Source: Escherichia coli (lineage in GTDB: Bacteria; Pseudomonadota; Gammaproteobacteria; Enterobacterales; Enterobacteriaceae). From it: a stretch of 64,000 nt of DNA. The stretch lies in NCBI RefSeq assembly GCF_030013595.1, contig NZ_CP122768.1; one strand, 5' to 3'. Positions 20,023 to 42,403 of this stretch are shown here, in pieces (position 1 is the stretch's first letter; the number at the start of each line of letters is the position of its first letter). The notes beneath the pieces are model-generated. The model saw nothing but the letters and a program-made list of their open reading frames with translations. It was not told the DNA's origin and ran no database searches. The position numbers were made by a program, and so were the translations under genes.

Positions 20023-20654
20023 AACGACGTGACACCATCGTGCGCTACACCGCGCCGGAACGTATCAACCACTGGATCACCGCCTTCTGCTTCATCCTGG
20101 CGGCGGTGAGCGGGCTTGGCTTTTTGTTCCCGTCCTTCAACTGGTTGATGCAAATCATGGGCACACCGCAGCTGGCGCGAATTCTGCACCCGTTTGTCGG
20201 CGTGGTTATGTTTGCCTCGTTCATCATCATGTTTTTCCGTTACTGGCATCACAACCTAATCAATCGGGATGATATCTTTTGGGCGAAGAATATTCGTAAG
20301 ATCGTCGTCAACGAGGAAGTAGGTGACACCGGGCGTTATAACTTCGGTCAGAAATGCGTTTTCTGGGCGGCGATTATTTTCCTGGTTCTGCTGCTGGTGA
20401 GCGGCGTGATTATCTGGCGTCCTTATTTTGCGCCTGCTTTCTCAATCCCGGTGATCCGATTCGCGTTAATGCTGCATTCATTTGCCGCAGTGGCGTTAAT
20501 TGTGGTTATCATGGTGCATATCTACGCCGCCCTTTGGGTGAAAGGCACGATTACCGCCATGGTGGAAGGATGGGTTACCAGCGCCTGGGCGAAGAAACAT
20601 CACCCGCGCTGGTACCGTGAGGTCCGCAAGACAACGGAAAAGAAAGCTGAATGA
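20019..20654 (+). CDS. fdoI: Formate dehydrogenase-O cytochrome b556 subunit
   Basis: 211-aa membrane protein overlapping fdoH stop. Confidence 0.95.
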
Positions 20655-21580: not shown

Positions 21581-21761
21581 TCTCTGACGTTTTCCGGGTG
21601 GCGCAGGTCGCCCGGATTATAGCTCATAGGGTGTGACGACACTATCTCTCGTATTCCGCGTTACAACCTCAAGCTATGCCGCCAGTGCCTGTTTTGCCTC
21701 AATTTTCACACTGAGAAAATCGATAAGGATATCGATATCAAATAGCCAAATCTTTTTGCCA

Positions 21762-21980
21762 TTACCATTCCTCGCGCAGCTTACGCTGGTATTCGACACC
21801 ATCTTCCTCACTCCCTTGCCAGATGCCAAAAGCACTGGCTCTTGCTGTTTGCGATTGATTTACCAGGTATTGATCTACCGCTTCCCGTAATAGCTTCGCA
21901 CGAGGAAGATTACGCTGCACCTCGAGATCATCAAGTTGCTTAAACAACTCATTCGATAAATTGAGTAAAATTCTGCCCAT
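21762..21980 (-). CDS. yiiF: Ribbon-helix-helix (CopG-like) small protein YiiF
   Basis: ORF 21762..22004; start set to second ATG giving 72 aa; paralogous to yiiE. Confidence 0.7.
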
Positions 21981-22095
21981 ATCTATACCTGCCAGAGAGT
22001 TCATAAATATCTCGCCATTATCATTTTTGAATCTATGGAGAGAAAAGTACCCTTGCCGAATCTTTAAAGAAAGCTCATTTACGCATCATTTTTTA

Positions 22096-22138
22096 TTTTT
22101 GCGAGGCGTTTTCCAGATATGATGTAACAGTTGCAGTT
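22096..22138. repeat. Conserved ~43-bp upstream element, copy 1 (upstream of yiiF)
   Basis: tttttgcgaggcgttttccagatatgatgtaacagttgcagtt closely matches 22536..22578. Confidence 0.6.
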
Positions 22139-22222
22139 ATTATAAGTTCAAGTAAAACAACCTTGTATTAATATCAGAATAAGGGCATCTGGTTTTTATA
22201 TTCAAGAATAATAAATTTTTTG

Positions 22223-22441
22223 TCATTCCTTATGCTCCTTACACTGATCATCGACACCCACTGCCTCCCCCTTTTGCCTGCCTCCCTTTGCTTTACGCAC
22301 CGGGAATTGCTGACGTTCCAGATATTGCTCTACCGCTTCGCGTAAAATTGCAGATCGTGAAACCTTACGCCAGCCCCTAAGCTTGTTCAGCCGTTTAATT
22401 GCCTCTTCTGATAAATGAAGAAAAACCGTATTCATCGCCAT
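22223..22441 (-). CDS. yiiE: Ribbon-helix-helix (CopG-like) small protein YiiE
   Basis: ORF 22223..22468; start set to ATG 22441 (MAMNTVFLHLSEEAIKRL) giving 72 aa. Confidence 0.7.
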   Translation of the reverse strand: MAMNTVFLHLSEEAIKRLNKLRGWRKVSRSAILREAVEQYLERQQFPVRKAKGGRQKGEAVGVDDQCKEHKE

Positions 22442-22535
22442 TACCAATACCTTACATATATTACTCATTAATGTATGTGCGAAAATTACGCCGAAAAATC
22501 ATTTAAAAAAAGCGGATTTTTGCATGCTGTTTTGT

Positions 22536-22578
22536 TTTTGCGAGACGTTTTCCAGAAATAATAAGAACGTTGCAGTTG
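22536..22578. repeat. Conserved ~43-bp upstream element, copy 2 (upstream of yiiE)
   Basis: tttttgcgagacgttttccagaaataataagaacgttgcagtt; paired with copy 1. Confidence 0.6.
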
Positions 22579-22962
22579 TTTCATTTGTTAATCAAAAATG
22601 GTTTGGTTATCGCCCAGGATGAGATATGGGTGCTATAAATATATTATATTCAGGGATATTTATTTTTTGATTGGGTCTTCATTTGCATAATCTGAATGGT
22701 GTACCCGAAAAACGTCAGCATCCTAACAGCACCAGGATTTAAGGTGAAATTTAACATCCATCACAGACCGTTCAATGCTGCCACCAACCGGTCTTTACTT
22801 GCTCGTCGTTATAATTTTGTGGGTAACAGTTCGGGAAACAAGGAATTCCTTCCGGAACACCCCGGTATCATCCGATAGCATTGACGTCAATCATCAGCGC
22901 GACGGTGAGTTTTTTTAATCGCATCATAGGATGGTAACGTTAAGCACGATTACGGGTCATAG

Positions 22963-23008
22963 TAAAACTCCTGAGCAGGCGGCACTATGCCGCTTTCACA
23001 GGAGTTCT
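22963..23008 (-). terminator. Nested hairpin downstream of the 604-aa gene
   Basis: Outer stem aactcctg/caggagtt and inner stem gcggca/tgccgc, followed by a T-run on the minus strand. Confidence 0.45.
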
Positions 23009-23135
23009 GAATGCTGGTGCTTTCTGTATGGCTTCGCTATGCCCCTCGCGGCTAAGCGCCTGCACACATCTCTCTTTGAATGTCATTTTTGCAATGCATT
23101 GTCCGAATTCTGATAATCCTAATGAGTTTTACCCG

Positions 23136-24950
23136 TCAGACTCCCATCCCTACGGTATACGAGCTAGATTCATGAATGAAATCGACATTTTTAAAAAACG
23201 AATCTTGTAAAACATCCGTGTTGATATTACCTTGCAACCCAACATTAAATTTGTTAGAGAGATGAAGAACTCGAATATCAAAAAGGTCTTTTAACATCAT
23301 TAATTCTTTGGCTGTTAATGAATCGCAACTAAAATATCCCTGTTGATCAAAAAGCTTTTCTATTTCTCTACCATCGGCGAGGCGTTTTTCAAGGAGTGTT
23401 TGCAACATCGAGTTGCCAAGGACAATGGATATCGTGCGATCTTTCGCAGATTTACACCCCATCACAACGGCAACATTCGTATCCCCCTCAGGAGTTTCAT
23501 TTATCGCCGTCGCTAAAATGGTGGTCAAACACGCAAACGGAACTGTATTTCTTTCGTGATTTAATTTATCTACCAGTTCATTCCATTTATCAAAAGCCGG
23601 GCTATATTTGTTGCGTACAGAAATATCCGACTGGTTAAACAATTCAGCCATGCGATTTTTTATCATCTCGATATCCGGCGAACCAGAAAGACTTTGCGCA
23701 TAATACGGTCCTGATGATGTTGCATACATTAAAGCCGAGCCCACACCTGTCGCCATGATGGGCGCAGCTACGGTTTTGGCAAGGGCGACGCTGCGATGGC
23801 TATGCGCTTCACAGGCTAAAGGAACATATTCCACTGACTGCGGTAATTCCTTACATGCCTCCCTCATCATTGCGGTATGCTTTACAAACAACGGTTTTTC
23901 ACTGCCCAAAAAAACCTTCTGCTTAATTGCACTAAGAAAACGTAAATCCAAAATGATTGTTTTTGGTTTATTATTTTTTGGCACATTTCCTATTATCCCG
24001 CTAAGAACCTTCCTTGCTGCATGGAGATTTTTTTGCACAGCACATAACACAATTGACGAAGCCTTCTCTACTGCGTTATTGATTTTAATTTTAAAATCTG
24101 CATGATATACGTTGACGGGCAATGCAAGTATATCTTCCCCTACATCTTTGGCTGAGTATTTATTTGTGATCGACGGTCGTGAATCCACGAGAAAACTTAG
24201 CTGCAAATTATGCTCTATATTACCAGCTGTTTTTGTAGTGTGATTAAACATAGAGATGCCACCTCTCATTCTTTCACACATATCCTCAACTTTATCACTT
24301 CGTTCTTGTGGCAATTTGGCTTTAACGTTAATTTGATGATTTTTACCCGTGCATTCCTTAACAACAAGAGGAATGTTATCTAAAGTGCCATACAGGCTAA
24401 TAACGTCACCAGGATTTTTATCATGTAAGTAAGTTTGATTAATACTCGAAGCATTCACAAAGAGGTCAATATTATAACTGTTTATAACTTCACCTACATC
24501 AAATGTGTAGTGCTTACTCTGGAGGCTGCCATCCTTGTTTAATTGTATATCAATCAAGATATCCCCGGACTTTGTCACCATATCTTTGCCATAAACCATT
24601 TGCATAGCCATTTCGAGGAGGTTTTTATCTAACTGATTGCGGGCGTTGAGTAAGCGACTACCAAATAATTTATATACTGTTCCCGTCATTGCCAGCGCTG
24701 CGCTTTCTGGTACTTTGCGTTTCCACAGTGAGGTTTCTTTATTTTTAAACAGGTCATATTTATTATTACTCGACAACCCGAGTTTAAGTTCGTTAACACA
24801 ATCGCACAGTTGCTCCTCACCTTCCATTTTAAGGCGATGTGAAAAATCATTTAATAGCGTTTGCTTCGGTGATTCATTGCTCATTAGTTGTTTTTCTAAA
24901 TTAACAATAGAATAACTTTCTTGTTTAATGAGATTAATATTGGCAACCAT
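23136..24950 (-). CDS. Hypothetical 604-aa protein with CX5R phosphatase P-loop (CKSAKDRT); candidate IpgD/SopB-like phosphoinositide phosphatase
   Basis: Intact ORF; Shine-Dalgarno AAGGAGG 6 nt upstream of ATG; AT-rich by eye; motif VVMGCKSAKDRT encoded at 23433..23456, about 105 residues from the C-terminus. Confidence 0.8.
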   Translation of the reverse strand: MVANINLIKQESYSIVNLEKQLMSNESPKQTLLNDFSHRLKMEGEEQLCDCVNELKLGLSSNNKYDLFKNKETSLWKRKVPESAALAMTGTVYKLFGSRLLNARNQLDKNLLEMAMQMVYGKDMVTKSGDILIDIQLNKDGSLQSKHYTFDVGEVINSYNIDLFVNASSINQTYLHDKNPGDVISLYGTLDNIPLVVKECTGKNHQINVKAKLPQERSDKVEDMCERMRGGISMFNHTTKTAGNIEHNLQLSFLVDSRPSITNKYSAKDVGEDILALPVNVYHADFKIKINNAVEKASSIVLCAVQKNLHAARKVLSGIIGNVPKNNKPKTIILDLRFLSAIKQKVFLGSEKPLFVKHTAMMREACKELPQSVEYVPLACEAHSHRSVALAKTVAAPIMATGVGSALMYATSSGPYYAQSLSGSPDIEMIKNRMAELFNQSDISVRNKYSPAFDKWNELVDKLNHERNTVPFACLTTILATAINETPEGDTNVAVVMGCKSAKDRTISIVLGNSMLQTLLEKRLADGREIEKLFDQQGYFSCDSLTAKELMMLKDLFDIRVLHLSNKFNVGLQGNINTDVLQDSFFKNVDFIHESSSYTVGMGV

Positions 24951-42386: not shown

Positions 42387-42403
42387 TTGGCACAGATTTC
42401 GCT
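42387..42403 (+). promoter_or_regulatory. Sigma-54 promoter glnAp2
   Basis: ttggcacagatttcgct carries the GG-N10-GC sigma-54 -24/-12 elements. Confidence 0.8.

Follow-up and report, generated by a model that had tools for sequence, protein, structure and literature searches.

The two small ribbon-helix-helix (RHH) genes yiiF and yiiE stand in tandem on the minus strand of a 64-kb stretch of Escherichia coli DNA (the window), and each is preceded by a copy of the same short upstream element. We conclude that the core of this element is probably a CRP-S site, that is, a non-canonical site for the cAMP receptor protein (CRP) that is active only with the competence co-regulator Sxy (TfoX) and cAMP-CRP, placed before a decayed vapBC toxin–antitoxin (TA) operon whose antitoxin gene has been duplicated. 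The genes and elements concerned are the following:

21762–22004 (open reading frame (ORF) of 80 amino acids) or 21762–21980 (72 amino acids), minus strand: yiiF, a VapB-type RHH antitoxin gene without a functional toxin
22223–22441 (72 amino acids), minus strand: yiiE, a diverged tandem vapB duplicate encoding an RHH_1 protein
22063–22141, minus strand: copy F of a 79-nt direct repeat, made up of a CRP-S site and its flanks, with AACTGCAAC upstream and an A-rich tract downstream
22502–22580, minus strand: copy E of the 79-nt direct repeat, 77% identical to copy F in a repeat search
22097–22118, minus strand: CRP-S site upstream of yiiF, an exact consensus match that is also conserved upstream of vapB orthologs in other genera
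22536–22557, minus strand: CRP-S site upstream of yiiE, a consensus match with its 16-bp core at 22539–22554 (TGCGAGACGTTTTCCA on the plus strand)

An earlier inspection of the letters alone, here called the sequence-only reading, had described paralogous RHH genes in tandem on one strand, each preceded at a similar distance by a near-identical element of about 43 nt, and had taken the arrangement for a duplicated gene-plus-upstream module. Pairwise alignment bore this out, as YiiE and YiiF are 39% identical (BLASTP E-value of 8 × 10−12), and the upstream repeat proved to be longer than described. The 43-nt segments of the original description share 35 of their 43 positions, counted by hand from the sequence. 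Gene and upstream region were duplicated as a full unit with a period of about 439–458 nt, and alignment and repeat search support a tandem duplication of the gene plus its upstream regulatory region. Conservation is highest in a 22-nt core (TCTGGAAAACGYCTCGCAAAAA on the minus strand), which is identical at 21 of 22 positions between the copies and has only these two occurrences in the window at up to three mismatches, where 0.00 are expected. The 16-bp core of the yiiF site (22100–22115) reads TGCGAGGCGTTTTCCA on the plus strand, or TGGAAAACGCCTCGCA in the direction of the gene, with the TGCGA half-site promoter-proximal; the 16-bp core of the yiiE site differs from it solely within the N6 spacer. 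The distance from site centre to start codon is 103.5 nt for yiiF, measured to the start of the 80-amino-acid form found in RefSeq and in Protein Data Bank (PDB) entry 2k5j, and 105.5 nt for yiiE. K-12 has sites upstream of yiiE and yiiF that are identical to these.

Since the whole unit was duplicated, non-coding DNA included, the upstream similarity might mark the mere boundary of an ancient duplication and have no function, an outcome that the sequence-only reading had also allowed for. However, the upstream core is far better conserved than either the coding sequence or its own flanks, with the near-complete identity of the two copies standing against 39% at the protein level, and it has been kept across genera and in 5412 of 5426 E. 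coli genomes. We therefore give very little credence to a functionless boundary. Within E. coli the element is found nowhere but at this locus, and both the median and the maximum number of copies per genome are two. The core is not private to these genes, however, as it recurs at unrelated enterobacterial TA loci.

Several other identities for the repeat were tried and rejected. A dispersed repeat or miniature inverted-repeat transposable element did not fit, because the 79-nt element is found at one locus in E. coli and similarity between families stops at the ~22-nt core. A small ORF encoding GKRLAK was also dismissed, as most copies have a stop codon, or lack a start codon, just upstream; its variable positions are third codon positions, and only the copy in the SymE family is intragenic. 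A phage origin was set aside after a scan of viral contigs yielded mainly coding matches in Bacillus and a few copies in a SymE context. Rfam gave no covariance-model match at E-values up to 1 between 21400 and 23300, and searching the literature for the raw motif sequence gave no result. A partial copy of the motif beside the fdhE stop codon is not conserved in Citrobacter or Salmonella and is therefore probably due to chance.

The E. coli CRP-S motif is 5'-TGCGA-N6-TTCCA-3', as quoted from Sinha et al. 2009 in PMC6728893. Both copies of the core match this asymmetric motif at 10 of its 10 fixed positions, and they are the only two matches in the 64 kb, where 0.18 are expected; read on the other strand, the 5-6-5 layout TGGAA-N6-TCGCA is its exact reverse complement. 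CRP-S sites are described as asymmetric, requiring two different half-sites, indifferent to orientation and acting at class-I-like distances and by a class-I-like mechanism (PMC6728893). Enterobacterial half-sites have C6 or G6 and never T6 (PMC1635313), and sites of this type bind CRP poorly without Sxy (PMC1635313, PMC6728893). The half-sites here are TGCGA (C6) and TGGAA (G6), and across the Enterobacteriaceae the asymmetric site faces either way relative to the adjacent operon. Canonical CRP sites (CRP-N, TGTGA-N6-TCACA) share with the core the 5-6-5 architecture as well as T4, G5 and A8, whereas position 6 is C or G here instead of T and one half-site carries A7. In Citrobacter, Salmonella, Pseudocitrobacter, Superficieibacter and Enterobacter, conservation upstream of the vapB orthologs is highest in the core, while the flanks diverge.

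For comparison, K-12 promoters with a literature link to Sxy were taken by their coordinates. The Psxy site, CGGAAAGAGCCTCGCAAAT, is identical at 16 of 19 positions (counted by hand) to the 19-nt motif with which we scanned other genomes, and its TGCGA half is promoter-proximal as it is here. The ppdD site shares AACGCCTCGCAAA with the core, the site upstream of ybaV, which we take to be a comEA homolog, shares CGCCTCGCAAAAA, and the chpS site reads TGGAAAGCGGCTCGGA. These last three have the spacer and the right half in common with the yiiE and yiiF cores, and the region upstream of higB contains TGGAA-N6-TTCCA. CRP-S sites at the K-12 sxy, ppdD and chpS promoters were assigned in the literature, that of Psxy in PMC6728893, and for ppdD both CRP band shifts and Sxy-dependent induction were reported (PMC1635313). 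The E. coli Sxy-regulon sites at sxy, ppdD-hofBC and ybaV (Sinha, Cameron & Redfield 2009; Cameron & Redfield 2006; Jaskolska & Gerdes 2015) thus have the same TGCGA-N6-TTCCA, the same C6/G6 and the same extended right half, CGCCTCGCAAA. Psxy also shares the orientation of the yiiE and yiiF sites, and a class-I-like distance is common to Sxy-regulon sites and predicted here. What differs is the cargo, which is DNA-uptake machinery there and two orphan RHH antitoxin genes here. On these grounds, we predict that yiiE and yiiF are induced along with the competence regulon, and the locus is probably a relic addiction module wired to the DNA-uptake response. We found no mention of yiiE or yiiF together with Sxy in the literature, a search that did not extend to the published list of 34 transcription units.

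The distance between site and promoter can be estimated from a conserved GTAnnTT block, containing a TAnnnT hexamer, that lies 47–53 nt after the 19-mer in every vapB-type upstream region. In the window, it provides the following candidate −10 hexamers:

22044–22049, minus strand: predicted −10 hexamer of the yiiF promoter, TACTTT (TAnnnT), with a putative transcription start at ~22037
22483–22488, minus strand: predicted −10 hexamer of the yiiE promoter, TAATTT, with a putative transcription start at ~22476 and the same geometry as yiiF

If TAnnnT is the −10 element, the CRP-S centre would lie near −70.5, within the class-I range for CRP-S sites of about −60 to −100 from the transcription start, and the 5' untranslated regions (UTRs) would be ~33–35 nt long. 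The −35 region is weak, which fits a promoter that depends on an activator. We envisage that Sxy would help cAMP-CRP to occupy the weak asymmetric site, and that CRP, once bound in a class-I position, would recruit RNA polymerase to a promoter that is poor by itself. Such a mechanism has its models in P1 of E. coli hicAB (Turnbull & Gerdes 2017) and in the promoter of Haemophilus influenzae toxTA (Black et al. 2020), both of which have CRP-S sites. Any autorepression by the RHH proteins would be expected to act through conserved blocks at the −10 hexamer and in the 5' UTR and not through the repeated core. By analogy with hicAB P1/P2 and toxTA, these blocks, e.g. ATGATATAC, are candidate VapB operators.

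RHH antitoxins normally autoregulate, and this element was duplicated with each RHH gene and is conserved upstream of vapB orthologs. The core could then be an autoregulatory operator bound by YiiE and/or YiiF, each repressing its own promoter, as the sequence-only reading had suggested. However, the same core is found upstream of TA operons with HTH_37, NadS-type helix-turn-helix (HTH), CcdA, RelB and TacA antitoxins, at the type I toxins Hok and SymE, and upstream of sxy, ppdD and ybaV. It lacks the dyad or tandem-repeat symmetry of an operator, and better candidates for that role are found among the other conserved blocks, close to the −10 hexamer and 5' UTR. Moreover, the presumed DNA-reading strands of the two proteins differ (RILLNL in YiiF, TVFLHL in YiiE), yet their cores differ at a single position of 22. 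A private RHH operator is contradicted both by these copies at non-RHH operons and competence genes and by the differing N-terminal strand residues, and we consider this explanation very improbable.

The core could also be read as a sigma-54 (−24/−12) promoter, with GG and GC 10 nt apart and pointing toward the genes. The TGG-N10-GCA spacing is correct for this, the −12 element of glnAp2 is TCGCT, and there are bound sites such as CTGGAACGCTTTTCGCA. From 135 chromatin immunoprecipitation sequencing (ChIP-seq) sites we derived a weight matrix, with the consensus TGGCACG-N4-TTGCW, which recovered two published sites in the window, namely the intragenic fdoI site (IS47, CTGGCGCGAATTCTGCA, 20172–20188, plus strand) and glnAp2 (TTGGCACAGATTTCGCT, 42387–42403, plus strand). 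With this matrix the motif scored just 4.4–7.2 bits, compared with at least 6.7 bits for bound sites and 10.3 bits at their 5th percentile, and depending on the motif variant the window contains 86–277 equally good 17-mers. There is no ChIP-seq peak at yiiE or yiiF in the main tables or supplements and none in genomic SELEX (gSELEX), and the motif occurs in both orientations relative to its genes. We give almost no credence to a sigma-54 promoter at the core. Elsewhere in the yiiE upstream region, TCGGCGTAATTTTCGCA (22478–22494, minus strand) scores 12.7 bits with the same matrix, within the range of bound sites. This match is situated after the CRP-S site and before the yiiE start, where it shares positions with the predicted −10 hexamer; published ChIP-seq lists do not include it, and neither yiiF nor other genera have conserved it.

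The origin of the two genes that this probable CRP-S site precedes can be read from the syntenic position between fdhE and fabY in other genera. In Citrobacter freundii, Salmonella enterica and Pseudocitrobacter, this position holds a single 80-amino-acid YiiF ortholog and a 124-amino-acid PIN-domain gene, with the stop codon of the former overlapping the start of the latter. The two genes form an intact vapBC pair, and the upstream site is the same. The window contains no RHH gene overlapping a PIN gene, but the remains of the toxin gene are still recognisable:

21617–21745, minus strand: vapC (PIN toxin) pseudogene, in which codons ~7–27 (21745–21683) and ~102–125 (21673–21617) are kept
21594–21615, between the convergent fdhE and vapC remnant: GC-rich hairpin CCGGGTGGCGCAGGTCGCCCGG, conserved in other genera by alignment

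A tblastn search with Citrobacter VapC returned two pieces, residues 7–27 and 102–125, each with an E-value of 0.002. The DNA between the yiiF and fdhE stop codons aligns with the first ~90 nt and the last ~55 nt of the intact Citrobacter and Salmonella vapC genes, while ~215 nt from the middle of the gene have been deleted. The only PDB match of the remnant peptide is 7by2_B, 'Ribonuclease VapC'. As vapC is internally deleted, the E. coli locus is a degenerate VapBC and not a functional pair, and the earlier statement that no toxin partner is evident is wrong for yiiF. The hairpin is likely a terminator shared by fdhE and the vapC remnant, although a terminator scan did not call it. In K-12-type strains (DH1, L130 282–610, compared with window positions 21581–21761), the 5' part of the vapC remnant carries an extra insertion of ~148 nt that resembles a repetitive extragenic palindromic element or bacterial interspersed mosaic element (REP/BIME); the strain of the window lacks it.

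The proteins themselves support the assignment of both genes to the antitoxin type, as had been supposed from their RHH fold. YiiF matches the nuclear magnetic resonance (NMR) structure of Shigella flexneri YiiF (2k5j) end-to-end with an E-value of 3 × 10−37. Its second PDB match, over the full length and with an E-value of 2.4 × 10−25, is 7by2_A, a 'CopG family regulator' deposited together with the VapC chain 7by2_B, so that YiiF is homologous to a structurally characterised VapB. The Klebsiella pneumoniae VapBC (PDB 7BY2/7BY3) is accordingly the homolog of YiiF plus the vapC remnant, and E. coli differs from it in having a toxin pseudogene and two copies of the antitoxin gene. YiiE matches Pfam RHH_1 clearly (1.1 × 10−11) and YiiF weakly, under the cut-off. 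YiiF is 72% identical to Citrobacter VapB and YiiE 45%. Homologs of yiiE were found in Escherichia/Shigella only, and tblastn detected no third degenerate RHH copy upstream of yiiE. The part of YiiE that aligns to the C-terminal tail of VapB, presumed to bind the toxin, has decayed or diverged as protein but is still alignable as DNA. By these comparisons, yiiF is the antitoxin gene left over from a TA pair that lost its toxin gene to decay, yiiE is an Escherichia-specific duplicate of vapB plus promoter, and the two are orphan antitoxin genes today.

We propose that a CRP-S site, a promoter, vapB and vapC made up the ancestral unit, which was inserted in the interval from fdhE to fabY. A tandem duplication in Escherichia would then have copied the promoter, vapB and the initial codons of vapC to give yiiE and yiiF, after which the remaining vapC would have lost its middle, leaving two orphan antitoxin/repressor genes. 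In a few proteins the N-terminal RHH domain of YiiE is fused to the C-terminal tail of YiiF (P0074 and P0078 from E. coli, P0216 from E. albertii), with the crossover inside a stretch common to both paralogs. These hybrid genes seem to have originated when the tandem paralogs recombined, and genomes in which yiiE is annotated but yiiF is not (H27–H29) are probably the ones that carry them.

To see where else the core occurs, we searched for the exact 19-mer pattern in one genome per species, covering 100,044 species. Outside the enterobacteria, only chance or coding matches were found. Inside the Enterobacteriaceae, the 19-mer occurs at many unrelated loci, with several per genome in Enterobacter, and the feature shared by these loci is a TA module within ~30–135 nt, in either orientation. 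At least nine unrelated TA loci, named by Pfam or RefSeq annotation, have the site: VapBC, RelE-like/NadS, two Gp49/HTH_37 systems, RelBE, CcdAB, TacAT (TacA/GNAT), SymE and Hok. In eight of the nine the site lies ~30–135 nt upstream of the first gene, and in the ninth, symE-like, it is inside the 3' end of the gene. The RelB/RelE module with the site is found between nrdG and cybC, and comparison of occupied and empty nrdG-cybC positions showed that the motif is brought in by the TA cassette, as the empty position has none. A non-TA match was found in the sulA-sxy spacer of Pantoea; when Pantoea sxy DNA was used as query, no E. coli match was obtained. In addition, the clpA-adjacent family (L047, L052, L030, L123) has the site together with proteins of 150–171 amino acids lacking a Pfam match, and a family with a GTAACATGTTAC palindrome (L014, L048, L089, L096) has it without a convincing ORF.

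The position of the site within these loci bears on whether it could be a sequence at which mobile TA cassettes recombine or end, comparable to the attC of integrons or the end of a transposon, with its likeness to CRP-S being secondary. The site often sits at the exact edge of variable DNA, 1–12 nt after the stop codons of core genes (L035, L045, L055, L122), and in cassette arrays (L006, L114, L131) each cassette has a single site, with all of the sites facing the same way. In Enterobacter cloacae (L013 4317–4335, L118 1168–1186), a second CRP-S copy lies exactly at the breakpoint of a truncated rhuM (…YFEEMLE|SASQF…). However, no conserved hairpin, inverted partner or second copy at the far cassette end was found, no recombinase is associated with the site, and the empty nrdG-cybC position has no copy. 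The same motif also occurs at the non-mobile competence promoters sxy, ppdD and ybaV, and in the K-12 ppiD-ybaV spacer (L161 3790–3809) it likewise follows the stop codon of the upstream gene. That the site lies at cassette edges is explained by its being the outermost element of a promoter region, and we regard a recombination site as highly improbable. Two further observations concern these edges. L045 and L055 have a hairpin whose 5' arm is the site. At the E. cloacae breakpoint, CTGGAA comes from rhuM and is followed by what by eye is a putative Gp49/HTH TA module; the junction looks like a cassette replacement joined at a 6-nt microhomology.

The breadth of this TA association, with nine loci, many genera and a site that moves with the cassette, exceeds the descriptions we found in the literature. 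It is possible, though we put this forward tentatively, that CRP-S sites, present as near-consensus copies at both type I and type II loci, are a portable part of Enterobacteriaceae TA cassettes and that TA modules, as well as orphan antitoxins like YiiE and YiiF, would be systematically switched on with the Sxy response.

Some observations weigh against the identification of the core as a CRP-S site or against its proposed action. The spacer (G-S-C-G-Y-T) is conserved beyond expectation for a pure 5-6-5 CRP site, and common descent of the DNA, as opposed to selection, could be behind part of the TA-linked similarity. An exact 19-mer scan is also blind to the frequency of CRP-S sites at non-TA promoters, which leaves the TA enrichment unquantified. 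In an enterobacterial metagenome-assembled genome (UBA5654, L074), Enterobacter sp. JUb54 (L083) and Klebsiella michiganensis (L113), the site occurs without a TA module in the gap between an alpha/beta-hydrolase gene and fdhE. There it lies 27–89 nt from the start of the divergent hydrolase gene and faces fdhE, so it may serve the hydrolase gene or be the relic of a lost cassette. As to the promoter, the −70.5 geometry has the predicted −10 hexamer as its sole basis, and a generic sigma-70 scan called no minus-strand promoter at yiiE or yiiF. The two genes are not listed in the transcription start site datasets searched (Cappable-seq, ROSE and Rend-seq annotation), and near yiiE gSELEX shows only a weak peak of RpoS holoenzyme and SlyA binding.

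The genomic neighbourhood of the two genes is itself variable. In the window, fdoGHI-fdhE is followed by a low-GC gap and then by fabY (yiiD), and yiiF and yiiE form a tandem within this gap. The sequence-only reading had placed the pair beside an AT-rich island and asked whether it acts on that island. The pair is in fact inside the low-GC stretch, which extends over ~21700–25300 with a GC fraction of 0.34–0.47 against ~0.55 in the flanks, and an action on the island found no support, as E. coli strains differ in island content (a 604-amino-acid ORF, or a hydrolase gene plus RelE-like/NadS, or neither) while yiiE, yiiF and both upstream sites are constant. In other genomes, the fdhE-fabY gap holds HigBA, ParDE and RelE-like/NadS modules or an alpha/beta-hydrolase gene; it is a TA hotspot. 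The 604-amino-acid ORF (23136–24950, minus strand) belongs to no Pfam or NCBIfam family, and RefSeq divides a sequence identical to it into a 'transposase' and a partial hypothetical protein. Within it, at 23373–23391, lies a degenerate CRP-S-like 19-mer with three mismatches. A 16-nt inverted repeat, complementary at 15 of 16 positions (CTGACGTTTTCCGGGT and ACCCGAAAAACGTCAG), flanks the whole yiiF-yiiE module at 21584–21599 and 22703–22718. Its right arm is kept in three E. coli structural variants, and its left arm, which borders the fdhE/vapC hairpin, is not conserved in Citrobacter.

Links between the Sxy response and TA modules have been described before, as overexpression of sxy induces chpSB, higBA and hokD. 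Like hicAB and toxTA, the ancestral locus is a type II TA operon with a distal promoter that is CRP-S/Sxy-activated, by prediction in the present case. In both of those systems a separate element is repressed by the antitoxin; here the corresponding candidates are the conserved blocks, and a second, antitoxin-repressed promoter is conjectural. The toxTA toxin is partly deleted in most strains while antitoxin and promoter persist, which is the same pattern of decay as at yiiF. Gene order differs, with the RHH antitoxin first and a PIN toxin following here, whereas the toxin comes first in HicA/HicB and Gp49/HTH modules.

The practical value of the finding is modest, in that the element belongs to a described class of sites. 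Nevertheless, two long-uncharacterised K-12 genes gain a candidate regulatory input, Sxy plus cAMP-CRP, and an evolutionary identity as a decayed vapBC. The link known for chpSB, higBA, hokD, hicAB and toxTA is extended to many TA families and genera, which suggests that being tied to the competence regulon recurs among TA cassettes, can be transferred with them and goes beyond an oddity of K-12. If the sites are indeed portable, their purpose may be to pre-load the cell with antitoxins against toxins on incoming DNA, as a form of anti-addiction, or alternatively to couple growth arrest to DNA uptake.

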